Below, one piece after another: positions 516 to 64,000 of a stretch of 64,000 nt of DNA; within the stretch, counting starts at the first letter, position 1; each line of letters begins with the position of its first letter. A program made the position numbers and the translations under genes. This DNA is from Convolutriloba macropyga (lineage: Eukaryota). The notes beneath the pieces were generated by a model. It was not told the DNA's origin, did no database searches, and worked only from the letters and a program-made list of their open reading frames with translations. Location: NCBI RefSeq assembly GCF_964194025.1, contig NC_134482.1, forward strand, positions 40,734,001 to 40,798,000, given 5' to 3'.

Positions 516-522
516 TCATGTA

Positions 523-16411: not shown

Positions 16412-16463
<52 letters not shown>

Positions 16464-17799: not shown

Positions 17800-17816
17800 T
17801 TATTATTATTTTTGTT

Positions 17817-17886
<70 letters not shown>
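17800..17886. repeat. (TAT)n microsatellite (LINE tail)
   Basis: Direct reading. Confidence 0.97.
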
Positions 17887-17887
<1 letters not shown>

Positions 17888-20565: not shown

Positions 20566-20574
20566 CTCCCACTC
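20566..20574 (-). promoter_or_regulatory. Polypurine tract GAGTGGGAG overlapping the pol stop codon
   Basis: Immediately abuts the 3' LTR. Confidence 0.85.
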
Positions 20575-24806: not shown

Positions 24807-24847
24807 ATTGGTTTTGTTTTGGAAATCAATTTTATGACTTAGAAAAT

Positions 24848-24863
24848 TGCTGGGCCCATAACC
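24848..24863 (-). promoter_or_regulatory. Primer-binding site GGTTATGGGCCCAGCA, complementary to the anticodon-arm region of initiator tRNA-Met
   Basis: + strand tgctgggcccataacc equals the internal tRNAi-Met sequence UGCUGGGCCCAUAACC; same PBS type as Drosophila copia. Confidence 0.93.
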
Positions 24864-25473
24864 TGTTGGGTTATGGACTTTCGCAAGCGGAATAAAAAGC
24901 GTTTTTAACTAAGTAAAAGAATTAATTTCTCAAAAATTGAGAGAATAACAAAATGATATTTTACAATAGAATTTAGAGATTTACAGGAGAGATCTGATTA
25001 TTAGATCAAGATGGTGATTTGAATTTGGGGATGAAAAAGGACTCAAAAATCAGCTGTACATATACCCCTTATCAGTGTGAAAAAGTCAAGATACAAAACT
25101 AATCTTAGCACCGTGATTTATGGTGGGGGTCGCAAGGGTTACCCAATATGGTTTGCTTGTGCAAATCAGTCGCAAAGGGAACCATAAATGGAATGCATTT
25201 GCACTTTTCTAAGAATTCATTCACACTTCCGGAGATATCATCATCATTTAATACATGCTGGGAAGATTTTACATCACTTAATCTAACTCTAATAATAGTT
25301 ATCTAGATTCCCCAATTTGAACCGAATATTGATTCTCAGCACCATTTCTTGACGATTCATTTATATAATTTCTTTGATCGAAATCATATTGCTTGTCTTT
25401 CTAATCTGGTAAGTCAAATTTTCTTTCTAATTTTCACTAAGTTTAAGACTGTAGTTTGATCGATATTCTAACA
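24864..25473 (-). repeat. 5' LTR (610 bp)
   Basis: tgttggg...tctaaca on the + strand; adjacent to the PBS. Confidence 0.97.
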
Positions 25474-40900: not shown

Positions 40901-42096
40901 CAGGTTATGGTCCAGACCCAAATTGGTTTATGATCAGACCCAGTCGAGCGCACAATCGTGTGTTCCCAGACCGAAATTAAAGGGTCTGGCCGGAAGTTCG
41001 AGCGCACTACGGTCTGGACGATGGTCTGGAGATGGTTTGATCAAAAGTAATTTTGGTCTGAAAAGTCTGGACCATGGTCTAGAGATGGTCTGATCAGAGA
41101 TCAATTGGGTCTGAAAAGTCTGATCAAAGGCGGATTCGAGCGCATTTGAGTCTGATCAGAGGCGACTTCGAGCGCAATTGGGTCGGATCATAACCTCTTC
41201 GAGCGCAATTGGGTCGGATCATAACGTCTTCGAGCGCAATTGGGTCTGATCAGAAATGTTTTTGAAAGCAATTGGGTCTGATCAGGGACAGTTTTGAGCG
41301 CCCTATTTTTTCTTTTTTTTTTGTTTTTTTTTTACTGAGAGATGTTGACTCCGCCAAGAAGAAGAAGCAACAATAAAGCAGCTTTCTGATCAGAGACTCA
41401 TCAGAAGTCCGATAGCTCTGATCAGAAAACAGGATTCCAGCTGATATCAAAGGCCGGTCCCCTTCAGAAAAAATTTTGATCAAATGGAGACCACGATGTT
41501 TCTTATGGAAAGCTGTCTAAACTCATCCATTCAGTCAGAAAAACACTAAGCGGTACTCTAGAAAAATTTAATCCCAACAGTTGGGTTTCCTTTTCTTCAG
41601 CAATACCTTTATAATTGATTTTTCCTTAGATGAATTAAATACTGCAACTATCAGTTTTTATGAAAGGAATATATTATAGCAAAATTAAGCGATTTGTCCG
41701 TAATTTAAATATATCTCTGATCAGACTATTGCGAGCGCACTTGAGTCTGATCAGAACCGGTTTCGAGCGCGCTTCAGTCTGATCATAAATGGCTTCGAGC
41801 GCAACTGGGTCTGATCAAAAACTCTTCGAGCGCACTTGAGTCTGATCATAGTCTGATTAAGGTCTGGGCAATGGTCTGATTTTGAGTCTGGACCATGGTC
41901 TGAAGTTCGTCTTATCAGAACACCTTCGGTATGAAAATTCTGATCAGAGACCCTTTGTGTCTGGAAAGGCTGATCAGAGGTATCTTGGGTCTGGAAAGTC
42001 TGATCAGTGTTAATTTCCGTCTGGAAAGTCAGGTCAAAAATAATTTCGGTCTGGATAGTCTGATCAGACAAAAACTTGGGTTTGCAACTCAACCTG
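40901..42096. mobile_element. Non-autonomous DNA-transposon-like element (CAGG termini, hAT-like) with phased 30/31-bp subterminal repeats
   Basis: Left caggttatggtccagacccaa versus reverse complement of right end caggttgagttgcaaacccaa; many TCTGATCAGA and TCGAGCGCA motifs; AT-rich core ~41490-41715; TSD not found. Confidence 0.65.
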
Positions 42097-42245
42097 GAAT
42101 TTAAATCTGATTGCGCTTGTATTACAAAAACATATTGTTATATACTTATGGCGGCCTCAGTTTTTTGCAAATAGTTTTTTTTCAAGGGTTTTCTATTTTT
42201 ATTAACTTAACAAGACTATGGCAAATGTTCACGGAAAAGGGAACC

Positions 42246-42555
42246 CAGGGTGAGGTGCGCAACCCAAACCAGCTCTGATCAGACCGTCCAGATCAATATC
42301 GGCTCTGATCAGACAGATTTGAGTCGCGCACTGTGGGTGCCAGACCGACTTTAGTAGCGCACTGTGGGTGCCAGACTGACTTGAGTAGCGCACTGTGGGT
42401 GCCAGACCGATTTGAGTAGCGCACTGTGTGTGCAAGACCGACTTGAGTAGCGCACTGTGGGTGCCAGACCGACTTGAGTAGCGCACTGTGGATCCCAGAC
42501 CGACTTGAGCAGCGCACCGTGGGTGCCAGACCGACATGAGTAGCGCACTGTGAGA
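42246..42555 (+). repeat. Truncated second family member: TIR-like end plus ~7.5 copies of a 31-bp minisatellite
   Basis: cagggtgaggtgcgcaacccaa at 42246; unit gagtagcgcactgtgggtgccagaccgactt over 42320-42552. Confidence 0.9.
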
Positions 42556-44560
42556 CTGTATTTTTTTTGAGCAAAGACTCTTTACTGTGTACTTTTTTAT
42601 GCCTTCTTCTAACCTGTTTTTAGCATCAGGTCACCACTGCCTCCAAATCACACAGGGAGTGTTTTCAAGAGCGGTCCCCAAAGAAGCTATTCGCAAGAAA
42701 AATTATTTGCAAGATTTTTTGAACAACGGATTAGCCCATATGACTTTTGTGTCTGGACAGCTTTAGGCTTTCAGCACAAAGAGGAAATTGAAGCTGTAAT
42801 AAGTCACTGTGACGTGCCTAGTTAAAATAGTTTAGAAAAAAGACAAATTTCATTTAAGAAACAACGGAAGTTCTTGCGTTTCCGAACTACACGTGTCTCC
42901 TGTAACACTTTGGTAGGTGCTGAACAAACATTTTCGTTGTTTTTCATTTTTTTTCGTAAAAAGATAAATCGAAAATGTCCGCCAAAATTCGACACGTAAA
43001 CCAGAATTATAGCACTCTTGTCGCATTGACCGCCTTAAGTCTACTCAGAAAATCATTTTGCTTTTTGAATTAATAATGGATGATAGAAGCGTTTAAGATC
43101 AGTTCTCAGTTTTTCTAGTTTTGTGTGTTGAATTTCGCCTGCTTTTCTTCGATTACTTTTGCTTTGTCACTTCTTCTCTTAGCCATTGACGGTCTATTTC
43201 GGGCGAAGATCAATAATAGTGCATAGACGTTCTCTAATGAAATGGGCATCAAGGATGTAATGATGAAAACTCTCGCTTTCTTCGGAGGCTCCTCTGCATC
43301 ACTTCTACATTCCGTTGCTTTTTCAGATCTCAATGAAAAATGCACATTCTTGTTAAAAGTCCTTTTTAATTGAGAAACTATTTGTTTGCTTAAGCATTGA
43401 AAAAAGTATTTCACGGTTATGAACTCCTACCACTAATTTTGCGCTTATTAATTGTTGTTAGAATATCAAAATTGGTACAAACATACGCTGAATTGTTGTT
43501 CTCTACTGTGATCAAAATTCCCAAATTTCACGGGCTTCAGCGTTAAAATTTTTACGACAACCGATCGTTCTCATCAGAAATTTTTCGTTTTAGGTTCATT
43601 CTACTCTGAACATTTAAATCCATAAAACTTGTTAATTGCGTGTAATTTTTTGCTGATCCTTAGATTATTTATAAGCTTGAATAGGTTTTTGAAAAACAGA
43701 CTGTGAATGAAAAGAAGTTCGTGATGTTGTAGAATATAAAGGATTCATGAACAAAGATGACTTCAGAATACAAGTTGCAATCTCCTATTGCAAGTAAAGG
43801 AGCCGGAAAATGAACAGAAAGAAAGACATACGCAAGCAATAAAAATTGTATTACAAAATGTTATTTTATTTTTTGCACCAATGTAGCTATCTAAAACACG
43901 TATGACTTATGGCATTCGCAACACAAAAAACGGTATTGAAAAAATTGATGAAACCTGCAGAATTTTTCTTCCGACGATGTCTTCAAAAATATTTATTAAC
44001 CCTCGTTTTACATGCAACACACATATTCATTCCACGCGCATACTCATTTCTGTATACTCTCCACAGGCATATTCATTTCTGTATAGCAAGGCTCGAAAGA
44101 ATCGAAAAAAAAGACATCTACAAAAGAAAATTTTTGATTGATACACACACACCTANNNNNNNNNNNNNNNNNNNNNNNNNNNNNNNNNNNNNNNNNNNNN
44201 NNNNNNNNNNNNNNNNNNNNNNNNNNNNNNNNNNNNNNNNNNNNNNNNNNNNNNNNNNNNNNNNNNNNNNNNNNNNNNNNNNNNNNNNNNNNNNNNNNNN
44301 NNNNNNNNNNNNNNNNNNNNNNNNNNNNNNNNNNNNNNNNNNNNNNNNNNNNNNNTTCCAAAAATTAAAAAAAAGCAAAAGTACTTAACTTTTACAATGT
44401 AAAAAAATAATAAGATAGCCCCGTAAGTACATTAAGCCAATCCATAAAAAAGTTGATAACAAAAAAGTGTACGTGATTAACGAAGAATTAAAAATTATAG
44501 GAAAAAAATCAGTATTAATTTTATTAGACTTCGACTTTATTTACATTGAAAGTACACGTT

Positions 44561-44921
44561 TCACAAATAATTATTGATAAAATTTAGAAATTTAACATCA
44601 TGAAAATTGATCATGATTGTTTGAAGAAATATAAAAAGTTGCAATGCAGCTAATATTACGTGAAATCCACACAAATTATTCGTTTTCTGAAGTGGACGTT
44701 GTATTCTTTTCTGATGCATGTCATTCAAATGTTTTTTGTGTGAATGTTTGAGCTAAAGGATTTGCACAATTTTTTTTCTGTTGAGTCGAGCAAATCAATA
44801 AGTAATTGTCCAATGATTTGCAACTTTTCTTCTTGAAGAGGTGATGATGACAGCGAAGCTGAATTTAAAGCTTCTGCTCTGTATTTTCTTCAATAGGCTG
44901 TCTCAGGAAAGTGCTATCTAT
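44561..44921 (-). pseudogene. Maverick adenain-like cysteine protease remnant, copy A
   Basis: Manual translation: FAVIITSSRRKVANHW...QRPLQKTNNLCGFHVILAALQLF...NFINNYL*; catalytic H and Q..CG motifs present. Confidence 0.78.
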
Positions 44922-45266
44922 GGCAAACACTTTTTCTTTGCCTTATTTCGAAAGTATCGTTAAAGCATGATCTGTAACTTTAAAATCAATCTGAGACGAT
45001 TCGTTTTCTTCAAAAAACAACATTTTTTCGATGCTTTACCTCGAAAAAAATGTCTGCTTGTTTATTTATGTCATTAGAGTCAGTATGGGAATTTTGATGG
45101 AAGAAAATTTTTACCATGAAGAGTGACAAAAGTCAGGGAAGTTACATCAACGAAAAAGTTTGTATTAGTTCTACCCCCACTTACGCCCATTTTCCTTTAA
45201 GAAATGATTTGGTGAATAGAATGAAAAGTAGGTGTTGATGTTATCATGAATTGTTATCATCTTTCA

Positions 45267-45703
45267 ATTCGTTACCATGAATTGAACTGTATAACTATTC
45301 AATTGGTAAAGTTTTTGGTCTCGCAATGTAGAACTAAATGTTGGAAATGTAGGGGAAAGATTATCGACTTTAAATTTTGATCAGTTGGAACGGTTTCAAA
45401 AATCTCCTGACAATTTTTGTTTTCAGGAGGAACTTTCGTACTTTTGAATTTTTAGCTGTTTTACGGCTTTGAATTTTTGATTTCTGGAAATCAAAAAGTC
45501 AAAGCCGTAAAACAGCTAAAGACTAAAAAGTACGAAAGTTACTCCTGAAACAAAACTTGTCAGGAGATTTTTGAAACCGTTCCAACTGATCAAAGTTTAA
45601 AGTCGATAATCTTTCTCCTACATTTCCAACATTTAGTTCTACCACGGGCGACCAAAACTCTTACCAATTGAATAGTTATACAGCTCAATTCATGATAACG
45701 AAT
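45267..45703. repeat. ~437-bp fold-back palindrome (two ~218-bp arms, 2-nt centre at 45485-45486)
   Basis: tttttgatttc-tg-gaaatcaaaaa centre; arms pair out to attcgttaccatgaattg / caattcatgataacgaat with scattered mismatches. Confidence 0.96.
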
Positions 45704-46330
45704 ACATTTTGAAGCATCTTGAATTGAAGTTAGATCAAAAACAAGCACATATTAGTTCTTAAAAAGACGTCTAGTTAAAGCCGGAAGTCGTTTCGTGAAG
45801 TTCATTGCTTACATTGTTGTTGCGTATAACCTAAAATTGTTGGTCGTAGAAATTTAGACATTCATTTTACCTCCGTAAAGTCCTATCTCTATGTTCTCTT
45901 AACGCAAAAATTTGGTAACAGAGAGTTTTTGCTGGAAAAAGTCCCCTGAAATTGTGTTCATAACTATCAATTGGTCTTTTCAGAGCATTTTCCCTTAGTA
46001 AACTGGTTCTATCCCTAAGGAGCAATAAACGTACGCGCAGTTGTTTCCATAAGGTTATAAAAAACTGTTGAAGAATTAATTGGTATTTGTGAGTGTGATG
46101 ATACACACCTTTAACAATAGCATTTTTTGTGAATAGGGAACATTCGAGGAAAGAAAACGTGAGAATTGTACGAGACAATGTAAAAATTATGTTTTGCACA
46201 AACGAATTGTAGTTTTTTTGTAATTGTAAGCAGCAATTTTTCAAATGGAGTGAATCAGTTGCTAATTTACTGCTAAAGATAACTCCACTTTTCCAGAAAA
46301 ATCTTTGCGATATCCGACGCTCAATATTTT
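45555..46330 (-). pseudogene. Maverick major capsid protein remnant, copy A (C-terminal half)
   Basis: ECSLFTKNAIVKGVYHHTHKYQL; VFDLTSIQDA (~45710-45742). Confidence 0.72.
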
Positions 46331-46615
46331 TGTAGTGTTATTGAAAAATCTTTCTTTATATTCACTTCTGTACTGGTTGTTTTTATAATTTTTCAAAATT
46401 TAAAGACACATTACAAAATACCATCAAACTACAAAAGTACTATACGTTTACAAACCAATAAAACAAAGAGAAAGCAGCCTAGGTACATATAGCTTAGTTG
46501 TAACAAAGTCGAAAACAAAAGAGTGTGCGTAATTAACGAGGAAAGAAAGATTTCAGGAAAAAATCAGTATTAATGTTATTAGATTTCACATTTAATTACA
46601 TTGAAAGTACACATT

Positions 46616-47013
46616 TCACAAACAATTATTGATAGAATTTAAAAATTGAATTTCATGAACATTGTTTATGATTGTTTGAAGAAATATAAATAGTTGAAAT
46701 ACAGCTAAGATTGGGCAAAAATCCACACAAATTAGCTATTTTCTGACGAGGTTGTTGTATTCGTTCCTGAAGCATGCCATTCAAAATTTTTTTGAGTGAA
46801 AGTTTACGCTGAAGGATTTGCACTTTTTTTTCTGTAGAGTCGAGCAATCATTATCCAAGGATTTCCAACTTTTTTGAAGATTTGAAGAGGTGGCCATTAC
46901 AGAGGCTGAATTAAAAGCTCACTCGGGGCACAATGTGCTAGAAAAGGTCGAATGAAACGGAATTTCTTCTCCGGATTTTGTTAAAAAATCTGTCTTAAGA
47001 AAGTACTATCTAT
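46616..47013 (-). pseudogene. Maverick protease remnant, copy B
   Basis: ORF 46653-46847 contains IQQPRQKIANLCGF; homologous to copy A. Confidence 0.72.
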
Positions 47014-47344
47014 ACAAACAGTCTTTCTTTAATTTATTTTGCAAGTGTTGCTAGTGCTTGAACTGTGACCGTAAGAAAAGTCAAATGATTCCTTTTCTTC
47101 AAATAACAACAATTATTTTGACGCATTACCTTGTTAGAAAAAAACAGTGTTTGCTGGGCTATTTTTGTCATCACCCAGTATGGAAGTTTTGATGGTAGAA
47201 AAAAATTACAATGAAGTGTACCAAATATTTGGAAAGTAGCAACAACGAAAAAGTTTGTATCAGTTCGCCCCCCGTTTACGTCCATTTCCATATAAGAAAA
47301 GATTTGTTGAATGGTAAGAAAAGTGGGTGTTTATAACTCATGGA

Positions 47345-47960
47345 GCAATAAAAGTATATGCAATCGTTTCCATATGGTTTTAAAAAGCGTGTTGATGAAT
47401 TAAAAGGTATTTGATAGTGCGATGACACGCACGGATAACAATAGCATTTCTTCTGAATAAGCCAAAAAACAGTTTTAATTAAACGTGAGGATTTTACGAG
47501 AACATGTAAAAATTTTGTCTTGCGCGAAAAAGATTTAGTCTAATTTTTGTAAATGGAAGCAGCAACTTTTGAAATGCAGTATATCAAATGCTAGTTTTCC
47601 CCGATAGATATTTCCATTTTTCATTAAAAGTTCTTTCTCACAGTCTAAAAACGGATTTTATTCAAAGTCTTTGGAATCTGTTTCAATTTCATGTCCATGA
47701 AAAGCCAAAAAACCTTCATTGTTTCGGACTGAAGTGTTGAGTTCACTGTAAAGTGAATCCTTGTGTCCGTAGATTCTATATGAAATTGTAAGCTTGCTGG
47801 TTACTCAGATGCATTTCGGAGGCTGGGAAGCGTGATTGAAGCAAAGTTTTCACGTGAGTTAGATAGTGTAAATTATAGTTTTAAAAGTCTTTCCAATATC
47901 CGACGCTCCTTAATTTCATAGAGTCAATAAAAAACTTCTCTTTCGTCCCTTTCTGTACTG
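47345..47960 (-). pseudogene. Maverick major capsid protein remnant, copy B (N-terminal/central part)
   Basis: YLTHVKTLLQSRF..EMHLSNQQ; YRGKLAFDI..KLLLPFTKIRLNLFRARQNFYM; HMETIAYTFIAP, read across frameshifts. Confidence 0.78.
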
Positions 47961-48249
47961 GTTTAGGCGTTGAAGAAGTTGAAAAAATAAAATACTAGAA
48001 AAGAACGAATTAAAAAAGCCTAAAAATTGTAAAAGCCCAACAAAAACAAAAGTTTTTTACTTGACAATTATTTTAAAAAAGTACTCTGATAATTTATAAA
48101 GAATGCACTTTAGGTACATTTAGCCTTGTCGTAAATACAGCCGTGAAAAAAACAGTGTGCGCAATTAACGAGGAATTAAAGTTTCAGGAAAAAAATCAAT
48201 ATTATTATTTTTAGACATCTACTTTTTTTTACCTTGAGTTTCAACATTC

Positions 48250-48652
48250 CGCAAAAAAAACAAATAAAACGTTTTGTTAATGGATTATCAAGAACAAAGG
48301 TCAATTTTTTTTGAAGAAATGGAGATATATTTGAAACACAGCTAAGATTGTGTAAAATCCACGCAAATAAGTCTTTTTCTGAAGTAGACTATGCATCTTT
48401 TTCTGATGCTTGTTTTTCAAATGTTTTTTATATGAATGATCGAGCTCAAAGATCTGCATAATTTTACATTCTGTTGAGTAGAGCAGTCATTATCCAACGA
48501 TTGCAAAGTTCACTACTTGAAGAGGGGACGATGACAGCGCAGCTGAATTTAAAGCTGATTTGATACACAATGTGCTGGAAAAGATCCGATAAAACCGAGG
48601 TTCTGCTCTGGAAATTGTTCAGTAATCTGTCTCAGGAAAGTCCTATTTATGG
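48250..48652 (-). pseudogene. Maverick protease remnant, copy C
   Basis: Nucleotide homology to copies A, B and D; NRWIMTARLNR. Confidence 0.68.
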
Positions 48653-49074
48653 CAAACACTTTTTTCTCTGCCGTATCTCGCAAGTAATGTTAATGCATGA
48701 TCTATAACTTTACAATCAAGCTCATATGATTCGTTTTCTTCAAAAAGCAACAGTTATTTGCCGCCTTACCTCGTTCGAAAAAAACTTTGTTTGCTTGTGT
48801 GTTTTTTGTCATCAGAGTCAACCTGGGACTTTAGATGGAAGAAAAAAATTGAAATGAAGATTACCAAACCTTGGAAAGTGTACATCAACAAAAAAATTTT
48901 GTATTATTTCTCCTCCGTTTACATACGTTTTCATTTAAGAAATGATTTGGTGAATAGAACGAAAAGTGGATGTTGATAACCCATATCCTTAACCGTCCCA
49001 GAAATCAATATTTCCAAGCCGTAAAAAACTTTAAAAAAAGTGCGCAAAGATTCCTCCTTGAAACAAAATTTGTC

Positions 49075-50070
49075 AGAACTTTTGGCTACGTTTCCAAACG
49101 GATCAATGTTTAAACTGGATTGTCTTTCTGCTAGAATATTTTCTCTAGCATCATGAAGTGAAGTGAGATGAAGTACAAGCACTTAGTGTCTCTGGAAGAG
49201 ATGAATAGGTAAGGCGGGAGATAGTTCCATTAAGTTCAATGCTTTCATTGTTGTTGCGATTGCCTGACATTTGAGATATCCATTTTACCTCCACCTAAAC
49301 GAAGTCCTGGTAACGCAAGGGATTTGCTGGAAAATATCCCCTGAAATTTTGTTCAATACTACCAAATACTTACAAAAAATTTTTGGAGAATCTCTAAAAG
49401 AACTTTTTTTATAAACTGGTTCTGTCGCTTAGGAGCGAAAAACGTACGCGCAGTTGTTTCCATAAGGTTTTAAAAAGCGTGTTGATGAGTTAAATTGTAG
49501 TTGATACTGTGATGATAACACGGTTAACAATAGCTTTTCTTCTGAATAAGCAACAAAAAAGAACTTTAAGTAAGCATGAGGATTTCACGAGACCATGTAA
49601 AAGTTCTGTCTTGCTCGAACAAGATTTATTCTGTTTTTTTTTTATATTTTGAAGCAGCAACTTTCAACTGGAGTAGCTAATTTGCTAATTTACGCAATAA
49701 ATCATTCCCTTTTTCAGGAGAACTTCTTCCTCACAGTCTTAAAACGGAATTTTTTGAAAATTTTTGGATTTTGTTTCGTTTTCAATTCCACGACAAGCCA
49801 AAATATTTTAATTGTTTCTGGTTGAAGTGTTGAATTCATTGTAGAGTTGAATTCTTTGCAAACTAAAGCCTTGTGTCTGTAGATTCTATATGAAATTGTA
49901 AATTTTCTGGTTGCTCAGATGTATTTTATATGATGGTAGGAGCGAGTGCAGCGAGATTTTCACGTTAGTTAGTTAGTGTAAATCATCGTTTGAAAAGTCT
50001 TTCTGATATCTGACGCTCCTCATTTTTATAGAGTCGTAAAAAAACATCCCTTTCGTCCTCTTCTCTACTA
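49075..50070 (-). pseudogene. Maverick major capsid protein remnant, copy C
   Basis: LMETTARTFFAPKRQNQFI; FQGIFSSKSL / NP region; LVLHLTSLHDA...LNIDPFGNV. Confidence 0.75.
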
Positions 50071-50359
50071 GTTGTTTTAAGGCGCTGAAGAAGTTGAAAA
50101 AGAAAACAACACGAAAAGAACGATTTAAAAAACACAGATGTTAAAGTCGCGTCTTAAAAGCCCATCACATTACAAAGATACTTTACGTTTACAATAAAAA
50201 AACATAAAAAGAAACCCCTTAAGTACAATTAGCCTTGTCGAAAATCTAGCCAATTCAAAAACAACAAAATGTGTTGATTTAAAAAGGATTCAAAGATTTT
50301 GTCGGAAAAAATAATAACTTGATGAGATTTAGACTTTATTTACAATGAATTTAAACATT

Positions 50360-50715
50360 TCACAAATAATTACTAATGAAATTTAGTAATCGGACATCAA
50401 GAACATAGGTCATGTTCGTTTGAAGAATAATAGATAGTTGAAACACAGCTAAAACATTGTATCTTTTTTTGATGCTGGCTTTTCAACTTTTTTTTATGTA
50501 AATGGTCGATATCAAGGACCTGCACAATTAACATTCTGTTGAATCGAGCAATCATTATCCAAAGACTTCCAAATTCACTACTTGAAGAGGCGATTATGAC
50601 AGCGCAGCTGAAGTTAAAGCTGACTTGGGGCACAATGTGCTGGAAAAGAACCAATATTCCCATATTTCTGATCTGCAATTCGCTCAACAATATGTCTGAG
50701 GAAAGTGCTACCTAT
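50360..50715 (-). pseudogene. Maverick protease remnant, copy D
   Basis: STFLRHIVERI...YGNIGSFPAH (G.FP.D motif) and CAVIIASSSSEFGSLWIMIARFNR. Confidence 0.75.
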
Positions 50716-51395
50716 GACAAACAATTTTTCTTTGCCGTTTTTTAATAGTATCGTTAATGCATGATCTGTAATTTTACAATCAAGCTCAAATGATTCGCTT
50801 TCTTCAAAAGCAAAAATTATTTGACGCTGTACCTCGTTCGAAGAAAACTTTGTTCGCTTGTTTGTTTTTGGCATCAGAGTCCCTATTGGATTTTTGATGG
50901 AACAAAATAATTAAATTGGAGATTAACAAAAGTTAGGAAACGTGAATCAGGGAATGATTTGAAGAAGCAAATGAAAAGTGAATGTTGATATTCTAAATCC
51001 CATAGATGTCCCATAAAACAATAATTCAAAGCCCAAAAAAACTAAAAATCAAAAAGTACAAAAAATCCTCCTTACAACAAAAATTGTCAGGATCTTTTGT
51101 CAACGGTTCCAAACGGATCAATGTTTAAAACTGATTGTCTTTCTCCTTGAGCATTTATTTAGTTCTTCCAAAAATCTTTTATAATTGAACACTTTCATCG
51201 CTGATTACATGAGAACAATCATTTTTTCCAGCATCTTGAAGTGAAGTGAAATGAAATACAAGCATTTAAGGTCTCTGGAAGAGATGAATAGGTAAAACGG
51301 GAGTTCGTTTCATAAAGTTTATTGCTTTCATTGTTGTTGCAAATGCCTGACATTTGAGACATATAGCTTTGCCTCCACCTCAGCGTAGTCCTGGT

Positions 51396-54300
51396 AATGC
51401 AAGGGATGTGATTGAAAATATCCCCTAAAACTGTGCATTACTACCAAATTTTTCTTTTTGTAGCGTCTTTAAAAACAATTTCCTTAATAAACTGGTTCTA
51501 ACCCTAAGGAGCAATAAACGTACGCGCAATTCTTTCCATAAGGTTACAAAAAGCTTGTTGATTACAAATTGGTTTTTCATAGCGTGATTATACACAATGT
51601 TAACAATAGCATTTCTTCTCAATAAGCAACAGCCAAGAACATAAGGTAAAACTTGAGATTTTTCAACAATGTGCTGGAGAGGTCCTGTATTCCCATTTTT
51701 CTGCTCAGGAATTCGTTCAACAATATGTCTCAGGAAAGTGCTATCTATAGCAAACAAATTTTTTTGCTGTATTTTGCAAGAATCTTAATTTATGATCTCA
51801 CTGTACATTCAAGATGAAATTATTCCTTTTCTTCAAAACGCAACAATTGTTTGAAGCTTTACCTCGATCACAAAAAAAAACATTCTTTGCGTTTTTTTTG
51901 TCATCAGAGTCAGTATGAGAGTTTTGGTGGACGAAGATACTTACAATATAGAGTACCAAATGTTGTACCAAAAAGTACAAAAATACCATAAAACAAATAT
52001 TGTCAGAGATTTTTGGCAACTGTTCCAAACGGATCAATGTTTAAAGTGGACTGTCTTTCTCCTAGAATATTTAGTTCTTCCACCGCGGGCCGAAAAACAT
52101 TTCTAACTGAATAATTTACCTCTGATTTTATGACAACGATTTTTTTTTCCAGCATCTTCAAGTTAAGTGAGGTAAAACACAAAACATTAATGGTTCTGAA
52201 AGAGATGACTGCGTAAAACTGGTATTCGTTTCATGAAGTTCGTTGCCATATTTGTTGCTGCGAAAGCCCTACATTTAAGACATCGATTTGACCTGCGCGA
52301 AGTTCTCGTAACAGAGGGGTTTGCTTGAAAATGTCCCTTGAAATTTAATTCATAACTACCAAATTTGTCCAATTGGAACATCGTTAAAATCTTTTCCCTC
52401 AATAAACTGGTTTTATCTCTAATGAAAATTAAACTTATGCGCAATAGCTTCCGAAAGTTTTTGAAAAACCTGTTGAGGAGTTAATTGGTATTTGATGGTA
52501 CGATGATAAACACCGTTAACAATAGGATTTCTCGGAATAAGGAACAGCCAAGAATTTTAAAGAAACGGGAGGGTTGTTCCCGACCATGTAAAAACTGTGT
52601 CGTTAACGAATAATTTTTAGTCTTTTTTTGTAATTGGAAGCAGCAAATTTTCAAGGGAATGCAAGGGATGTGATTGAAAATATCCCCTAAAACTGTGCAT
52701 TACTACCAAATTTTTCTTTTTGTAGCGTCTTTAAAAACAATTTCCTTAATAAACTGGTTCTAACCCTAAGGAGCAATAAACGTACGCGCAATTCTTTCCA
52801 TAAGGTTACAAAAAGCTTGTTGATTACAAATTGGTTTTTCATAGCGTGATTATACACAATGTTAACAATAGCATTTCTTCTCAATAAGCAACAGCCAAGA
52901 ACATAAGGTAAAACTTGAGATTTTTCAACAATGTGCTGGAAAGGTCCTGTATTCCCATTTTTCTGCTCAGGAATTCGTTCAACAATATGTCTCAGGAAAG
53001 TGCTATCTATAGCAAACAAATTTTTTTGCTGTATTTTGCAAGAATCGTAATTTATGATCTCACTGTACATTCAAGATGAAATTATTCCTTTTCCTCAAAA
53101 CGCAACAATTGTTTGAAGCTTTACCTCGATCACAAAAAAAATCATTCTTTGCGTTTTTTTTTGTCATCAGAGTCAGTATGAGAGTTTTGGTGGACGAAGA
53201 TACTTACAATATAGAGTACCAAATGTTGTACCAAAAAGTACAAAAATACCATAAAACAAATATTGTCAGGGATTTTTGGCAACTGTTCCAAACGGATCAA
53301 TGTTTAAAGTGGACTGTCTTTCTCCTAGAATATTTAGTTCTTCCACCGCGGGCCGAAAAACATTTCTAACTGAATAAATTACCTCTGAATTTATTTCAAC
53401 GAATTTTTTTTTCCAGCATCTTCAAGTTAAGTGAGGTAAAACACAAAACATTAATGGTTCTGAAAGAGATGACTGCGTAAAACTGGTATTCGTTTCATGA
53501 AGTTCGTTGCCATATTTGTTGCTGCGAAAGCCCTACATTTAAGACATCGATTTGACCTGCTCGAAGTTCTCGTAACAGAGGGGTTTGCTTGAAAATGTCC
53601 CTTGAAATTTAATTCATAACTACCAAATTTGTCCAATTGGAACATCGTTAAAATCTTTTCCCTCAATAAACTGGTTTTATCTCTAATGAAATTTAAACTT
53701 ATGCGCAATAGTTTCCGAAAGTTTTTGAAAAACCTGTTGAGGAGTTAATTGGTATTTGATGGTACGATGATAAACACCGTTAACAATAGGATTTCTTCGG
53801 AATAAGGAACAGCCAAGAATTTTAAAGAAACGGGAGGGTTGTTCCCGACCATGTAAAAACTGTGTCGTTAACGAATAATTTTTAGTCTTTTTTTGTAATT
53901 GGAAGCAGCAAATTTTCAAGGGAATGCAAGGGATGTGATTGAAAATATCCCCTAAAACTGTGCATTACTACCAAATTTTTCTTTTTGTAGCGTCTTTAAA
54001 AACAATTTCCTTAATAAACTGGTTCTAACCCTAAGGAGCAATAAACGTACGCGCAATTCTTTCCATAAGGTTACAAAAAGCTTGTTGATTACAAATTGGT
54101 TTTTCATAGCGTGATTATACACAATGTTAACAATAGCATTTCTTCTCAATAAGCAACAGCCAAGAACATAAGGTAAAACTTGAGATTTTTCAACAATGTG
54201 CTGGAGAGGTCCTGTATTCCCATTTTTCTGCTCAGGAATTCGTTCAACAATATGTCTCAGGAAAGTGCTATCTATAGCAAACAAATTTTTTTGCTGTATT

Positions 54301-56445
54301 TTGCAAGAATCTTAATTTATGATCTCACTGTACATTCAAGATGAAATTATTCCTTTTCTTCAAAACGCAACAATTGTTTGAAGCTTTACCTCGATCACAA
54401 AAAAAAACATTCTTTGCGTTTTTTTTGTCATCAGAGTCAGTATGAGAGTTTTGGTGGACGAAGATACTTACAATATAGAGTACCAAATGTTGTACCAAAA
54501 AGTACAAAAATACCATAAAACAAATATTGTCAGAGATTTTTGGCAACTGTTCCAAACGGATCAATGTTTAAAGTGGACTGTCTTTCTCCTAGAATATTTA
54601 GTTCTTCCACCGCGGGCCGAAAAACATTTCTAACTGAATAATTTACCTCTGATTTTATGACAACGATTTTTTTTTCCAGCATCTTCAAGTTAAGTGAGGT
54701 AAAACACAAAACATTAATGGTTCTGAAAGAGATGACTGCGTAAAACTGGTATTCGTTTCATGAAGTTCGTTGCCATATTTGTTGCTGCGAAAGCCCTACA
54801 TTTAAGACATCGATTTGACCTGCGCGAAGTTCTCGTAACAGAGGGGTTTGCTTGAAAATGTCCCTTGAAATTTAATTCATAACTACCAAATTTGTCCAAT
54901 TGGAACATCGTTAAAATCTTTTCCCTCAATAAACTGGTTTTATCTCTAATGAAAATTAAACTTATGCGCAATAGCTTCCGAAAGTTTTTGAAAAACCTGT
55001 TGAGGAGTTAATTGGTATTTGATGGTACGATGATAAACACCGTTAACAATAGGATTTCTCGGAATAAGGAACAGCCAAGAATTTTAAAGAAACGGGAGGG
55101 TTGTTCCCGACCATGTAAAAACTGTGTCGTTAACGAATAATTTTTAGTCTTTTTTTGTAATTGGAAGCAGCAAATTTTCAAGGGAATGCAAGGGATGTGA
55201 TTGAAAATATCCCCTAAAACTGTGCATTACTACCAAATTTTTCTTTTTGTAGCGTCTTTAAAAACAATTTCCTTAATAAACTGGTTCTAACCCTAAGGAG
55301 CAATAAACGTACGCGCAATTCTTTCCATAAGGTTACAAAAAGCTTGTTGATTACAAATTGGTTTTTCATAGCGTGATTATACACAATGTTAACAATAGCA
55401 TTTCTTCTCAATAAGCAACAGCCAAGAACATAAGGTAAAACTTGAGATTTTTCAACAATGTGCTGGAAAGGTCCTGTATTCCCATTTTTCTGCTCAGGAA
55501 TTCGTTCAACAATATGTCTCAGGAAAGTGCTATCTATAGCAAACAAATTTTTTTGCTGTATTTTGCAAGAATCGTAATTTATGATCTCACTGTACATTCA
55601 AGATGAAATTATTCCTTTTCCTCAAAACGCAACAATTGTTTGAAGCTTTACCTCGATCACAAAAAAAATCATTCTTTGCGTTTTTTTTGTCATCAGAGTC
55701 AGTATGAGAGTTTTGGTGGACGAAGATACTTACAATATAGAGTACCAAATGTTGTACCAAAAAGTACAAAAATACCATAAAACAAATATTGTCAGGGATT
55801 TTTGGCAACTGTTCCAAACGGATCAATGTTTAAAGTGGACTGTCTTTCTCCTAGAATATTTAGTTCTTCCACCGCGGGCCGAAAAACATTTCTAACTGAA
55901 TAAATTACCTCTGAATTTATTTCAACGAATTTTTTTTTCCAGCATCTTCAAGTTAAGTGAGGTAAAACACAAAACATTAATGGTTCTGAAAGAGATGACT
56001 GCGTAAAACTGGTATTCGTTTCATGAAGTTCGTTGCCATATTTGTTGCTGCGAAAGCCCTACATTTAAGACATCGATTTGACCTGCTCGAAGTTCTCGTA
56101 ACAGAGGGGTTTGCTTGAAAATGTCCCTTGAAATTTAATTCATAACTACCAAATTTGTCCAATTGGAACATCGTTAAAATCTTTTCCCTCAATAAACTGG
56201 TTTTATCTCTAATGAAAATTAAACTTATGCGCAATAGTTTCCGAAAGTTTTTGAAAAACCTGTTGAGGAGTTAATTGGTATTTGATGGTACGATGATAAA
56301 CACCGTTAACAATAGGATTTCTTCGGAATAAGGAACAGCCAAGAATTTTAAAGAAACGGGAGGGTTGTTGCCGATCATGTGAAAACTGTGTCGTTAACGA
56401 ATAATTTTTAGTCTTTTTTTGTAATTGGAAGCAGCAAATTTTCAA
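51396..56445. repeat. Four near-identical 1262-1265-bp units arranged A-B-A-B
   Basis: Unit starts aatgcaagggatgtg at 51396, 52658, 53923 and 55185; diagnostic variants alternate. Confidence 0.97.
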
Positions 56446-56815
56446 ATGAAATAAATCAATTGTTAATTTACCGCAAAAAAGGATTCCACTTTTCAAAAAA
56501 AATTCTTCCTCGCAGTCTAAAGCCGGACCTTTTTAAAGACTTCGGGTTCTGATTCATTTTCATATCAGTGAGAAGCCAAAATACTTTTGATGTTTCTGGC
56601 TGAAGTGTTAGATTCATTGCCAAGTAAACCTTTGTGTTGTTAGATGATATTTGTAAACTTGCTGTTTGCTCATTGCATTCTGAGTTTGGGAAGATTGAGT
56701 GCAGCAAGTTTTGCACGTGAGTTAAATACTGCGAAATCATTGTTTTTGAAAGTCATTCCGATATCCGACGCTCCTTATTTCCATAGAGTCGTTAAGAAAT
56801 CTTCCCTTTTGTCAA
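55790..56815 (-). pseudogene. Maverick major capsid protein remnant, longest contiguous copy
   Basis: YLTHVQNLLHSIF (NN.LHSLFS motif); FCGKLTIDLF; LGCSLFRR..VYHRTIKYQL; FKGHFQANP (F.G....NPF motif); CRAF..NF..IP...LFQNH. Confidence 0.8.
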
Positions 56816-57016
56816 GTGACTATAACTTGAAGAATTATATTTCNNNNNNNNNNNNNNNNNNNNNNNNNNNNNNNNNNNNNNNNNNNNNNNNNNNNNNNNN
56901 NNNNNNNNNNNNNNNNNNNNNNNNNNNNNNNNNNNNNNNNNNNNNNNNNNNNNNNNNNNNNNNNNNNNNNNNNNNNNNNNNNNNNNNNNNNNNNNNNNNN
57001 NNNNNNNNNNNNNNNN

Positions 57017-57860
57017 TAATATCTATCTGTTGTAATTTTAATTGAAATGCTAATTTCATCCAAAACATTACGGGAATCAGCTTCTTGAACATTCAATTCG
57101 TACCAAAACAGTAATTTTCTCAAGCCGGAAAGTGTACTTTCGAAGGTTGCTATCGATAGTATATATAGAGTTCATTTTATCCGAGAAAAATATCGTTTCC
57201 AATTCAACAATGTTGGATGATTTTTGGAAGATCTTCTCGATTAAGAGGTCATTTCTATATTCTTCCTACACATAATTGTTTACGTAAAGTCTTTTGTCCA
57301 ACATCCGTTGCAATGGATTTTTATTTTCTCCCAGTGCAAAAACTTTCTATTTTTAAAAAACGTTGCAATGGATATCAGTGGACTATCTTACAATGATTGT
57401 TTTGACAAATGAAGAACAAAAAAAATAGGAAGTCAACTCTGAACTGTTCTTTCTTCTAGAATGTCTTTACTCTAGTAAGCCTTTTTAATTGAAAGGCAGG
57501 CAGACTCTTAATTCTCTGTAAAAACAAAACCATAAAAACTGTTCCCTTGCAGCTTTTAAAGTTTTGAATCACAATATCTATTTGGCAGCAAATAGTTGAA
57601 GTCTTCCAATGAAGATCGGTCGGATTTGAAAACTGCTTTTGGACTTATTCGCCAGATTCTACATGAAATTTTACATGATTTTGTTGGGGCTGTAGAAATT
57701 TCAGCAGATCAGGGAAATAATTACCATTTTATGCTACTGCCATTCTCAATCTCCAGTCTTCTAAGACATGTAGCTTTATAATTATTTTGCCTTAACTTTT
57801 AAATTTGTTATTACCATATCTTTAAAGTAACTGATTGTTATTCAGTTGTCAATAGTTGCA
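57017..57860 (-). pseudogene. Possible Maverick minor capsid (penton) remnant
   Basis: GD(W)RMAVA..IIFP-like N-terminal motif (~57710-57760); FKKLI...DEISISIKITT C-terminal motif (~57025-57092). Confidence 0.5.
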
Positions 57861-57879
57861 GTAAAAAGAAGCATGACTC

Positions 57880-58300
57880 TGGTAGTTTTCGATTTTGAGT
57901 AAACTGAGAGAATATTTGATAGGGATTTGAGAAACTTTATGGATGAATTGTGTTGTGATATACACTTCTCTTACAGACCGACTCCAGGACAACATTTCTA
58001 ACAGTAGAGAACACTCAGGATTTGCATAAGATCAACTGCAGTAATCAGAAATTGATTACTCAGGTTCGCTGTATGTTATTGAGCAACATTGTCCACCTAC
58101 AACCGTAAACTTTGCCAAAAGTTCTTTAAAAAATTAGATCCTATCCCAGTAGTTTTTAAGGAGGAGGAAAATTTGGATGTCCAAAAGGCACTTGGTTAAC
58201 CTGTCAATGAAGATAATATCTGGGATTGTAGTAGATACCCTTGTCGGCACAAGAAAACACTCCGCTGCGCAAAGAAGAAAAATTATTCTTACGGAATTTG
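57880..58300 (-). pseudogene. Possible retroviral-type integrase remnant, large deletions
   Basis: VDNVAQ...QFLITAVDL and QFIHKVSQIPIKYSL resemble the Maverick integrase start and end; weak. Confidence 0.35.
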
Positions 58301-58599
58301 GTCTCCTAAACTTCTAGAAATATACAATACTGTCATATTGTACAGCACTCCAATTCAATTTTAAAATTGTCTTTGTTTTTCTACAAATCAGAGAAACAGT
58401 TCATCAGAAAATGAGTAAGTTGAAACATTTTTGTACAAGGGTTACACAGTTATTTTTGTTTCAATTGATTTGTTTTTTTTTAATATTAATTTTGTATTTA
58501 CTTTCTAAGGCAAAATTATACAGAGACACACTGTTTTGGCTATCCTTTTGGTTTGCTTTCTTTTTCATTTTTTGAGGCTCATGATTTTGTTTATTGTTT

Positions 58600-59080
58600 G
58601 CACTGTAATTCAAATGAACAATTTTTTCCTTCATCTCAATGATAACGTTTATATGACAGAACATACAGATAGAGGGCTAAATTTGGATGATTTTGACCCT
58701 TATGATGTTATTCAAGAAGGGAAATTGTGGATAGGTTTTTGGACTACTTGTAATAAAGAATTAGATCTTATTCGGTTTAATTTTTTTGTTATACGCCTAA
58801 TTTGGCTTGTTGAGTAGTTAGAAAAGCACTGGCAACAATTTGTTTAGGGAAAACGTTCATGGTTGCAAATTTTTCAAGTACAGTTGAATATAGTTTACGA
58901 TCACCTAAAATATGAATATGATAATTTCAAGAAGCGATAAAAAACTTGAATTAAACTTGGTCCAATGATATCTGGAAGATCTGATCTTAAGCATGAATGT
59001 AAAACGAGTAAAAAGATTTTGCTGAAACTGCAACCGCGAAAGGAAACGAAGTCTCAATGAGGAAATTTTAAAGAGCATTT
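58600..59080 (-). pseudogene. Possible packaging ATPase remnant
   Basis: RFLFAVAVS..FYSFY and KICNHERF..IVAS-like segments; Walker A not retained. Confidence 0.38.
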
Positions 59081-61174
59081 TAGTTGATAACAGTACCTAA
59101 AGATCAGATAGAGTGTTGGAAATTACTAATATTATTGTGCTAAAATCTCCTAGGGATGTTCTGCACGAACAACATTTAGATCACAATTGAAAGAATCGTA
59201 TACCAAAGCAGCCTCTATGCCTTACTTTAATATTGATTTGAATTTTAGATATGGATTTGACTCTCTTAGCACTCGGCGTTCTTCAATTTTGTAGTAATAG
59301 TGAATTACTGGACCAATATCCTCAAACTTTAACCTTCCTGAACACAAACCACAAACAACAAACTACGTTTTGTGTGATGAGGACACAACAATTGTACTCT
59401 GTGATTGTTCCAAAAACATTGAACTTCAAGACAATATTCCTAAGAAATAGTCCCAGAGTTTTTATACAGTTTTCACAATAATTCATTGTAAAACTGCTTA
59501 GAGCAATACTGCAGGAACTTCAAAAACAGGCGTAATAAGTATTGAGAGGAAATTCATATTGCTAACACTTTGAACAATTAGGTGGTAATGGACAAATTTT
59601 ACATTATTTTGTTGAGGCTGTAGAAATTTCAGCAGATCAGGGAAATAATTACCAATTTATGCTACTGCCATTCTCAATCTCCAGTCTTCTAAGACATGTA
59701 GCTTAATAATTATTTTGCCTTAACTTTTAAATTTGTTATTGCCACATCTTTAAAATAATTGGTTGTTATTCAGTTGTCAATAGTGGCGGTAAAAAGAAGC
59801 ATGACTCTGGTAGTTTTCGATTTTGAGTAAACTGAGAGAACATTTGATAGGGATTTGAGATATTTTATGGATGAATTGTGTTGTGATATTCACTTCTCTT
59901 ACAGACCGACTCCAGGACAACATTTCTAACAGTAGAGAACACTCAGGATTTGCATAAGATCAACTGCAGTAATCAGAAATTGATTACTCAGGTTCGCTGT
60001 ATGTTATTGAGCAACATTGTCCACCTACAACCGTAAACTTTGCCAAAAGTTCTTTAAAAAATTAGATCCTATCCCAGTACTTTTTAAGGAGGAGGAAAAT
60101 TTGGATGTCCAAAAGGCACTTGGTTAACCTGTCAATGAAGATAATATCTGGGATTGTAGTAGATACCCTTGTCGGCACAAGAAAACACTCCGCTGCGCAA
60201 AGAAGAAAAATTATTCTTACGGAATTTGGCCTCCTAAATTTCTAGAATTATACAATTTTTGTCATATTGTACAGCACTCCAATTCAATTTTAAAATTGTT
60301 TTGTTTTTCTACAAATCAGAGAAACAATTCATCAGAAAATGAGTAAGTTTGAACATTTTTGTACAAGGGTTACACAGTTATTTTTGTTTCAATTGATTTG
60401 TTTTTTTTAATATTAACTTTGTGTTTACCTTCTATGGCAAAAATATACAGAGACACACTGTTTTGGCTATCCTTTCGGTTTGTTATTCTTTTTCATTTTT
60501 TGAGGCTCATGATTTTGTTTATTGTTTGCACTGTAATTCAAATGAACAATTTTTTCCTTCATCTCAATGATAACGTTTATATGACAGAACATACAGATAG
60601 ATGGCTAAATTTGGATGATTTTGACCGTGATGATGTTATTCAAGAAGGGAAATTGTGGATAGGTCTTTGGACGACTTGTAATAAAGAATTAGATGTTATT
60701 CGGTTTAATTTTTCTGTTATACTCCTAATTTGGCATGTTGAATAGTTAGAAAAACACTGGCAACAATTTGTTGAGGGAAAACGTTCATGGTTGCAAATTT
60801 TTCAAGTACAGTTGAATATACTTTACGATCACCTAAAATATGAATATGATAATTTCAAGAAGCGATAAAAAACTTGAATTAAACTTGGTCCAATGATATC
60901 TGGAAGATCTGATCTTAAGCATGAATGTAAAACGAATAAAAAGATTTTGCTGAAACTGCAACCGCGAAAGGAAACGAAGTCTCAATGAGGAAAATTTTAA
61001 GCGCATTTTAGTTGATAACAGGACCTAAAGATCAGATAGAGTGTTGGAGATTACTAATATTATTGTGCTGAAATCTCCTAGGGATGTTCTGCACAAACAA
61101 CATTTAGATCACAATTGAAAGAATGGTATACCAAAGCAGCCTCTATGCCTTACTTTAATATTGATTTGAGTTTT

Positions 61175-64000
61175 AGATATGGATTTGACTCTCTTAGCAC
61201 TCGGCGTTCTTCAATTTTGTAGTAATAGTGAATTACTGGACCAATTCCCTCAAACTTTTACCTTCCTGAACACAAACCACAAACAACAAACTACGTTTTG
61301 TGTGATGAGGACACAACAATTGTACTCTGTGATTGTTTCAAAAACATTGAACTTCAAGACAACATTCCTAAGAAATAGTCTCAGAGTTTTTATACAGTTT
61401 TCATAATAATTCATTGTAAAGCTGCTTAGAGCAATACTGCAGGAACTTCAAAAACAAGGCGTAATAAAGTATTGAGAGGAGATTCATATTGCTAACACTT
61501 TGAACAATTACGTGTTAATGGACAAGCAGCAAAAGAATGGATAATATTGGTTCAAATACGAATTTTTGAAATCCAAAATATTCGGATTGCAATGGGGCTC
61601 TGTTCCTTTTATTAATTTTCTTTTCGTCAACTAAAGACCAGAATGACTTAAAATCAAAATTCAGTGATTAAAAGATCAATTTTACAAGCAAAGAACAGTC
61701 GATGAACGTATTTTAAATTTCATCGGAAAGCTCTAAGTTTTTTTTGCTGCATCACTGTAATTGCGTAAAATTGTTTTTGATTTTCTGATTTGTACCAATA
61801 TATGTTGTCCTTTTGTTGTCTTTTGACTTAATCTCTCTAGGATAGTACTAATTGGTTTCTAAGGCAGCTACAAGATAATCAATTTAATGAAAGTGTAGTT
61901 AAAAGCCTATGCTTGTAATGACATCAAGATGTCTATTTCAAAAAATATTAAATATTNNNNNNNNNNNNNNNNNNNNNNNNNNNNNNNNNNNNNNNNNNNN
62001 NNNNNNNNNNNNNNNNNNNNNNNNNNNNNNNNNNNNNNNNNNNNNNNNNNNNNNNNNNNNNNNNNNNNNNNNNNNNNNNNNNNNNNNNNNNNNNNNNNNN
62101 NNNNNNNNNNNNNNNNNNNNNNNNNNNNNNNNNNNNNNNNNNNNNNNNNNNNNNNNNNNNNNNNNNNNNNNNNNNNGATAGATAGGGGGAGACTTTGCAT
62201 CCTGTTTTAAACGAATCACAATGTAATTTTGATTGCGTTTTCATGTTTTAAATAATGGTTCTTTGGCTTTGATACCTGACGGGTTTTCTTAGATTTTGTT
62301 GGACTTCTGGACGTTTTCGCGTTTCTGATATTGTTTTTTTACTGCCACAATATCAAAATAATACGAGCAATCTATATTGTTGTTGCAGTTGAAGGTTATT
62401 GTAATTGATAATATTTGATCTTTTTATTGAGTAGTTTAAAATATTAGCTACAAGTGATTAGTTTTATACCTTTCAGCTGAAAGCTTAAGATTTCTGTGAT
62501 TTTTTGTTTTCGAGAAAAATTTAATGGTTTTGTGAGCTTTGCCATTTTTTAACTTATTTTTGTCAATTCGCAGCGTTGTCTCAGCAATGAGAGAGTTTGC
62601 GTCCTTTTCAAATGAATTAGAACGAATTTCTGATAGCGGTTTTATACTTTATTTAACTCTTGTTGGCTTTTAGCTTCTAATGTTTCTTTTTTGCTGTCTT
62701 GTGTCACTTTATCATAAAATTAACCTGTAGAATATCAAATCAAAGCCGCTGAAAAAAGATGCCATTGGTTCTATTCAATCTTTTTAGTGAAGAGAACTGA
62801 ATTTTAATTGGTTGGAGAGCCTTTCATCTCAAAATTTAATTGAATTTTCATTGTCGTTTCTGTTTTTCTTTTTTATTCTCATAACTCATTATGTTACAGA
62901 ATAGTTCTCATTGGTTTTATGGAAGTGTATGTAAAACTAAATATTTGATAGTTTTTGATTTTCAAGATGTTGAAATTATTTGTTTTCAAAAAATGCCTTT
63001 TCTGTTTCTTTTGTTTACCGGTATTTTTTTCTCCTTGAAGACAATTACCATATCTTTTTTGATGAGGTGCAAGTTAAATGAACCAATTGTTAAAACAAAT
63101 ATAACAATCTTTTTCAAACAGTGTTTGAATTTTTCAAAGTTTTCAACCTGATCCACATTTGGTAGACAATTAAATCAGAAATGTGGATAAAAGCGGTTGC
63201 AAACGCACACTACCAAGCCTCCACAATTACATCTGTAATTCTATTTACAATCTGACTGCTCTTATAACAATGGAATGAGTTATAAAACTAAAGCAAATTT
63301 TGGTAATATGCATACATGTGATTGGATATTCGGTAAAAACTTGATTAGGCGAACTTGATTAGAAAGAACGTTTGTAGCCATTATTCTAAAATTCTGACGT
63401 AAAACTTTGTTCAAACTAGACGAGTGGTTTTGCAATATCCGCTTACTGTTTCACTGGTACTCCCGGACGAGCGTTACCCATTTATATAGTCATTACTTAA
63501 TTAATAGTGATTACTTGAGACCCAATTCATAGACTTATTTATTCTAGTGAGCAACGATATGGGTTCCAATTGTACTCTTAAGCCTCGATCGGTAATGAAT
63601 TAAGAGCGGCTATCTAGCTATTAGATACCGCGTGAAAATGAATTATTTTCAGGCTGGGAAAGAAAAACACAATCAAGTACCTTTACTTGACAAATCCTAA
63701 GTTGGCCACACAATAGAGGAAAATATGAACAAACTATTTTTGTGCAAATAAGCTTGGAGTTTTTTTGCCCGCCTTTTGCAAAAAATGTTGGTCTGGGAAA
63801 AATCTTTTATTGTCCTCAAGGGAAAGGTAAATAACATTTATGGAATTATTTTATTATTATCATCGTCTCGATACCGATCAAAACGATCAAAATATTAAGA
63901 CAGTTCTGATTTTGAAGGTAAAAGCAAAACCGTTTCCTGTCGAGATAACTTTTTCCAAGATCTTTTCAAAGGTGATATTTTCTCTATTTCCGGGGTTGCC
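61175..64000 (-). pseudogene. Protein-primed DNA polymerase B remnant
   Basis: IVIFVLTIGSFNLHLIKK at 63055-63110; the DNA tttgttttaacaattggttcatttaacttg is a few changes from FGFNSGSYDL (ExoII). FLQY...YY segment at ~61410-61465. Contains a gap. Confidence 0.5.

Follow-up and report, generated by a model that had tools for sequence, protein, structure and literature searches.

A single decayed Maverick/Polinton was found at positions 44376 to 61525 of the window, by which we mean the whole 64,000-nucleotide stretch of Convolutriloba macropyga DNA analyzed here (C16:40734001-40798000, in an assembly of 1.18 Gb), and its capsid-protease end has been turned into a layered tandem array. We hold it likely, with a probability of roughly 0.82, that this Maverick was already frameshifted and rearranged when it was copied in tandem, repeatedly, by a local process that is common in the genome and likely blind to sequence, and that the copies probably have no selected function. 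The original prediction, made from the sequence alone, had described a viral block at 44356..56445 that was becoming a macrosatellite. The array was correctly located, but the Maverick runs on to 61525 with a further 1.93-kb pair, and "macrosatellite" overstates an array of 12 kb and eight positions.

The capsid and protease remnants were traced by tblastn with the proteins of a near-intact Maverick of about 19 kb on C2 of the same genome (L012, the reference on which unit coordinates are given below). Their naming depends on the identification of this relative, because Pfam searches of the window's open reading frames (ORFs) and of the stop-masked frames of the first old unit, U1, returned no capsid or protease family. 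The C2 Maverick, recovered in a search of the genome with the young unit of the array, encodes an rve integrase (E value, 7e-13) and a Pox_A32 ATPase (E value, 9e-6), both above the Pfam cut-off, and a protease with a weak Peptidase_C5 match (E value, 0.0058, under the curated cut-off) that adjoins the capsid gene as expected. The model of its 443-amino-acid ORF, folded with 52 homologues (mean predicted local distance difference test score, 59.5), matched double jelly-roll capsids with a best Foldseek E value of 1e-10, including those of PBCV-1, SGIV, Sputnik, and mavirus. Sequence searches of Pfam and PDB were blank for this capsid, and PDB gave one chance match for the protease. The element also carries large polymerase-like ORFs of 1276 and 172 amino acids, whose motifs we take to be PolB-like, and Pfam matched no polymerase family on it. 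It ends in AGTAGT/ACTACT inverted repeats flanked by a 6-bp target duplication, termini recognized by the criterion given in the accessible text of PMC8097293.

Against these proteins, capsid fragments in the window matched with E values down to 1e-26 and protease fragments down to 4e-22; all matches were confined to 44564-61487 and included ATPase remnants. No integrase was matched in the window by tblastn, and no polymerase by protein or DNA comparison with the C2 Maverick. The terminal repeat was not seen in the window copy; a segmental paralogue, L014, retains terminal-repeat sequence. The predicted viral identity is thus borne out by tblastn and by the fold of the C2 capsid.

Self-comparison placed the array at 44.4-56.8 kb and separated old repeats (66 to 75% identity) from young ones (98.7 to 99.8%). 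Relatives of the young unit, most of them 64 to 68% identical, were recovered at dispersed sites by the genome search. Old diverged units were predicted correctly, as four of about 2 kb; there are in fact five, of 1.6 to 2.1 kb, about 25% diverged and each with its own deletions, all on the minus strand. U1 (44376..46301; L012 554-1415 and 1438-2282) consists of decayed protease, intergenic DNA, and the 3' half of the capsid gene, and its coding parts have 18 frameshifting indels. It contains a fold-back inverted duplication (45267..45704) with arms of about 217 bp that are 92% identical and have nearly no spacer. On the left, U1 is truncated by a run of 200 N (44156..44355), so that it begins about 90 bp inside the unit relative to the paralogue. 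By its round length this run is likely an assembly gap (a second run of exactly 200 N lies at C16:40857662), and more old units or the element terminus may be hidden behind it. U2 (46377..47946; L012 448-1412 and 1986-2608) has an internal deletion of about 570 bp, and U3 (47962..50056; L012 403-2608) is the most complete unit. U4 (50066..51657; L012 391-2141) ends in about 260 bp that form the head of the young unit. U5 (L012 1003-1302 and 1477-2639) starts at 51666, resumes at 55455..57352, and runs on into the capsid 5' end and a basic core-protein-like ORF, with a run of N (56844-57016) inside.

The four near-identical 1.26-kb young units of the prediction were found at 51393-56445, also on the minus strand. 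Y1 (51393..52654) joins capsid sequence (L012 1869-2141), the protease start with intergenic DNA beside it (1003-1302), and capsid sequence again (1477-2224). This is the predicted chimera of two capsid fragments and the protease start, and it has this composition because the unit straddles the U4/U5 junction and is made of the ends of both. Y2 (52655..53919) opens with a 3-base junction insertion (GGG on the plus strand, 52655..52657), belonging to a 7-mer that occurs again immediately downstream, and the identical junction recurs at 53920 and 55182, where Y3 (53920..55181) and Y4 (55182..56445) begin. Y1 and Y3 (type A) differ by one substitution, Y2 and Y4 (type B) by four, and Y1 and Y2 by 13. 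Of the 19 variable columns, 13 alternate in an ABAB pattern, three are private to the tail of Y4, which continues into the rest of U5, two are private to Y2, and one to Y1. Beyond the array lies the inverted remainder of the same Maverick (57337..61525), with two small ORFs, the ATPase, and a 100-amino-acid ORF; its ATPase region forms a tandem pair of 1.93-kb copies (57666-59595 and 59594-61525) that are 96.3% identical. The GC content of the block is 31 to 35%, or about 33% (as overall GC).

That amplification came after the loss of coding function, as predicted, follows from frameshifts shared among the units and from divergence that is flat across codon positions. U1, U2, U3, and U5 share a 1-base deletion with the paralogue, U2, U3, and U5 share one of 8 bases with it, and a deletion of 16 bases occurs in U3, U4, and U5. 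Differences between pairs of old units number 688/2582, 662/2599, and 645/2569 at the three codon positions (0.266, 0.255, and 0.251), even by chi-square test in two sets of disjoint pairs (P = 0.66 and 0.40), and those between two intact copies number 32/511, 20/511, and 121/512 (0.063, 0.039, and 0.236). The proposed unit phylogeny, computed for two segments (the protease side without U5, which is too short there), gave monophyletic units (support, 99) that are sister to the paralogue (support, 100), with a long stem of 0.12 to 0.14 substitutions per site, an array stem of about 0.05, and tips of 0.10 to 0.20. All units descend from one dead ancestor. Five independent Maverick insertions are ruled out by the monophyly, the shared frameshifts, and the flat codon pattern, and the same three observations rule out duplication of the module while it was still coding.

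The paralogue (L014/L016, C16:40466387-40474108) is an old segmental copy about 318 kb upstream that matches 44-64 kb of the window, DNA of the element's right flank included. In L014 the genes stand in the rearranged order seen in the window and the inverted Maverick remnant is present, with the capsid-protease unit in single copy. The order of events was decay and rearrangement, a segmental copy, and old tandem rounds to at least five units, followed by deletions, the fold-back (92% identity), the 1.93-kb pair (96%), the young duplication (99%), and the ABAB expansion (99.8%). These are more epochs than the two that the prediction had given as a minimum. Two further sequencing runs, X5 (labeled as another organism) and X6 (the same species label, shallow), yielded nothing beyond short pieces and matches to dispersed Mavericks, and neither dates the array.

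Whether the viral origin of the sequence matters was judged from duplications elsewhere. In the window itself, 14138-37131 is a layered array at 65 to 98% identity, mostly of local sequence and with no Maverick protein or DNA match. It includes old units at 65 to 85%, three 1.4-kb copies at 96 to 98% (15077-19210), pairs of 2.35 kb at 78% identity and of 292 bp at 98%, a dispersed repeat of about 390 bp, and TTA runs. In a control set of 59 evenly spaced 10-kb tiles from 12 contigs of this genome, scored for tandem duplications with a period of 0.4 to 7 kb, 12 tiles contained kilobase-scale duplications, covering 8.9% of bases. Five of the 12 have about three or more copies and three have young duplications; bases in young duplications (at least 95% identity) make up 1.1% of the control set, and none of the 12 duplicated tiles has a Maverick protein match. 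The tile measure is blind to duplications cut at tile edges and also misses the old units of the Maverick array. The region around the window is no richer than the genome, since 4/25 neighboring tiles are duplicated against 12/59 controls. The layering that had been read as a virus-specific satellite in the making is thus shared by nonviral DNA. Three of the control tiles, L069 (C12:5.0 Mb), L070 (C12:15.0 Mb), and L065 (C7:25.0 Mb), are taken up almost entirely by arrays that exceed the Maverick array in size, with units of 600, 515, and 1021 bp in about 17, 14, and 6 copies.

Tandem duplications were also found in other Mavericks. Among the best 150 of 3023 candidate protease matches, representing about 143 loci, six loci picked by eye have the protease repeated within 5 kb. 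With a C12 locus and the reference locus these make eight young duplicated Maverick loci, whose breakpoints are all different and four of which extend into flanking DNA; a 3.6-kb duplication shared by a subfamily is ruled out, since the breakpoints differ among loci. The viral origin of the window array is probably incidental because of the non-Maverick array, the control tiles, these differing breakpoints, and the single-copy paralogue. In the young Maverick of the C12 locus (L022 2182-9363; C12:31949182-31956363), 3589 bp are duplicated in tandem at 99.8% identity, and the capsid, core-like, and protease genes are each present as two open copies. Same-strand protease pairs 18 to 22 kb apart (C10:16424883/16443417, C7:8465863/8484146, C15:40970232/40990253, and C7:69031861/69053811), a spacing near one element length, are possibly head-to-tail Maverick dimers.

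The readable young junctions have 0 to 4 bases of microhomology or short insertions. At the C3 locus an exact 15-base templated insertion copies the adjacent flank, C1 has a 5-base insertion, C9 and the first C7 locus have 1-base microhomology, the second C7 locus is blunt, and the GGG insertion in the window recreates the 7-mer present just downstream. Templated insertions are described as a hallmark of polymerase theta (PMC7368036, accessible text), and in helq-1 mutant worms the duplications, which range in size from 100 bp to 10 kb with a median of about 1 kb, have microhomology or templated-insertion junctions (PMC8654963, accessible text). The genome contains an unbroken 2242-amino-acid polymerase theta frame and Ku-family exons; a second POLQ_helical match, possibly HELQ, was not confirmed, and a search with MMS22L_C was uninformative, with no match anywhere, controls included. 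The junctions suggest that end joining of aborted break repair, of the polymerase-theta type, would make new duplications, and that once two copies are present unequal homologous exchange could add more. In the window, a recent 1.26-kb duplication over the U4/U5 junction was followed by expansion to the ABAB arrangement. One end-joining event for the first pair and unequal exchange for the rest seem likely because the three young junctions are identical, and the site patterns fit an ABB x AB exchange or short gene conversion.

Tandem-duplicator patterns are known from tumors. They are also known from repair-deficient worms (accessible text of PMC8654963 and PMC7368036), and it is conceivable, though on balance doubtful, that the germ line of this animal is a natural tandem duplicator acting through polymerase-theta-type repair, with about 9% of the sampled DNA duplicated. 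If so, the dead Maverick, read against its intact relatives and the single-copy paralogue, would be a dated fossil in which four or more rounds at a single site are preserved.

Among other explanations, an intrinsic duplication hotspot at the capsid-protease end of Mavericks, caused by terminal repeats or element replication, could account for duplication of this end at 6 of the roughly 143 loci with the best protease matches as well as at the C12 and reference loci, four of them with periods near 3.6 kb. It is unlikely, however, as the loci were found through a protease query that selects this end by design, their breakpoints all differ, and several enter flanking DNA. Duplication at about 4% of loci does not exceed the 8.9% found for control bases, although just 1.1% of control bases lie in young duplications, and the units in the window had already decayed and contain no terminal repeat. 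The chance that the young copies are an assembly artifact, either stutter or the collapse of a much longer array, is very slight, even though Y1 and Y3 are one base apart, a probable assembly gap borders the block, and the depth runs may be the assembly source. Thirteen diagnostic sites alternate ABAB, and in unitigs from all four runs (at most two samples, one study) the young unit, a single unitig, has 2.65 and 3.26 times (the runs of sample S1) and 4.34 and 3.58 times (those of sample S2) the depth of a 5.9-kb single-copy flank. The GGG junction is present in all four at 2.3 to 3.8 times that flank. The read-depth check that had been suggested therefore speaks against stutter; summed unitig depth is not an exact copy number, but it is consistent with about four young copies and at odds with one copy or dozens. 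Just left of the fold-back palindrome, unitig depth over 44535-45405 is about 3, against 13 to 16 in the flank, in 3/4 runs, and the first depth bins there are low in 4/4.

The original prediction had also suggested that the array is possibly retained as a small-RNA template against active Mavericks. It would then be a source of Piwi-interacting or small interfering RNAs, perhaps aided by the U1 hairpin. The family is indeed abundant and recently active (the best 150 of 3023 protease matches are 83 to 100% identical), the 217-bp inverted repeat could yield double-stranded RNA, and a block of satellite repeats of about 177 bp each, some 18 kb past the window end, suggests nearby heterochromatin. 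As guides, however, the amplified sequences would be poor: their divergence from the intact copies used for comparison is about 30%, many closer copies exist elsewhere, and near-complementary 25-mers are lacking. When 25-mers were sampled every 5 bases from the young unit, U1, and U3 and compared with two intact copies of two subfamilies, 0% matched either copy with at most one mismatch and at most 1% with two or fewer, in contrast to the 29% and 56% of 25-mers from two ordinary dispersed copies that matched L012 with at most one. Among the 40 of 486 candidates scored, the best nonlocal DNA matches to the young unit have 64 to 77% identity, and the units diverge without constraint. The small-RNA reading is therefore unsupported and quite improbable; the array is more probably a fossil that evolves neutrally than a defense against viruses. 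The satellite block (L038-L042, C16:40815978-40852560) consists of about 37 kb of repeats of about 175 to 177 bp.

Several observations weigh against repeated copying of a dead Maverick by a sequence-blind process. The same 2-kb stretch was struck in several epochs, beyond what is seen in most control tiles; an array that already exists does favor more unequal exchange, and a range of identities is likewise seen in two of the control tiles, L062 and L069. The two segment trees conflict on the branching order of the old units, and the old junctions are too decayed to type. The exact junction caller was misled at 7/11 junctions by nearby mismatches or extra copies; three of the seven (C1, the first C7 locus, and the window young unit) were read from sequence context, and the rest are untyped. 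Neutrality, finally, is argued from divergence and genomic context.

Other features of the window include a Copia long terminal repeat (LTR) retrotransposon on the minus strand (19956-25473), inserted in the 14138-37131 array, with LTRs 96.6% identical, a 5-bp target duplication (TAGCT), and a gag-pol gene broken by stops and a frameshift. Minus-strand ORFs at 9183-12687 with a weak Exo_endo_phos_2 endonuclease match are likely a decayed long interspersed nuclear element. A cluster of 24- to 53-bp minisatellites (41012-42552), partly an inverted repeat (41012-41284 against 41716-42006), resembles the subterminal repeats of a DNA transposon. A young 6.6-kb tandem duplication at 98% identity (L037, L019, and window 1-1344; C16:40723074-40735344) overlaps the window start. 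An Rfam scan of the whole window gave no matches.

The array is a clear but ordinary case of a defunct mobile element that became a short tandem array, and nothing points to function. Its value is as a clock, because the rounds can be ordered and their junctions read by comparison with intact family members and a single-copy paralogue. Of broader interest is how heavily this genome is loaded with kilobase-scale tandem duplications that have end-joining junctions. Should the load exceed that of other animals, the genome would offer a natural system for the study of satellite origins and of tandem-duplicator genomes outside mutants and cancer.

Degraded Mavericks are well known: in the accessible text of Barreat and Katzourakis (2021; PMC8097293), 96% of vertebrate Maverick loci are host-eroded, with stops and frameshifts. 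The window copy is likewise eroded with frameshifts, and its intact relative has the rve integrase, A32-type ATPase, and double jelly-roll capsid of such elements, a weakly C5-like protease, AGTAGT/ACTACT ends, and a 6-bp target duplication. It differs in being rearranged and tandem-amplified in several rounds, which that text does not describe. Human macrosatellites such as D4Z4, DXZ4, and RS447 (PMC5687341, accessible text) also have kilobase-sized tandem units at one locus; they typically extend over tens to hundreds of kilobases, are CpG rich, and vary in copy number. The window array, with its 12 kb, about 33% GC, and only four homogeneous copies over 5 kb, falls short of them in length and CpG content. 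The helq-1 and brc-1/brd-1 duplications of Caenorhabditis elegans (accessible text of PMC8654963 and PMC7368036) are likewise kilobase scale and head to tail, with microhomology or templated insertions, but they come from repair mutants and are seldom seen in the wild type, whereas here the genome is a natural one and a role of polymerase theta is suggested by the junctions. No Maverick- or Polinton-derived tandem array or satellite was found in the literature by title and the start of the abstract, where subscription papers and supplements could still hold one; the main text of PMC9659126 does not mention Mavericks or Polintons, and the accessible parts of PMC13130569, PMC12694884, and PMC9026859 name Mavericks only as transposable element classes. 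Compared with the transposable element-derived tandem repeats and satellites of PMC9659126 (accessible text), ORF-derived ones included, the window array is local, short, and nonhomogenized, with one single-copy paralogue and no abundant family. It shares with them the use of former coding sequence as a head-to-tail monomer and is, with no published Maverick-derived case found, a further case of this known class.

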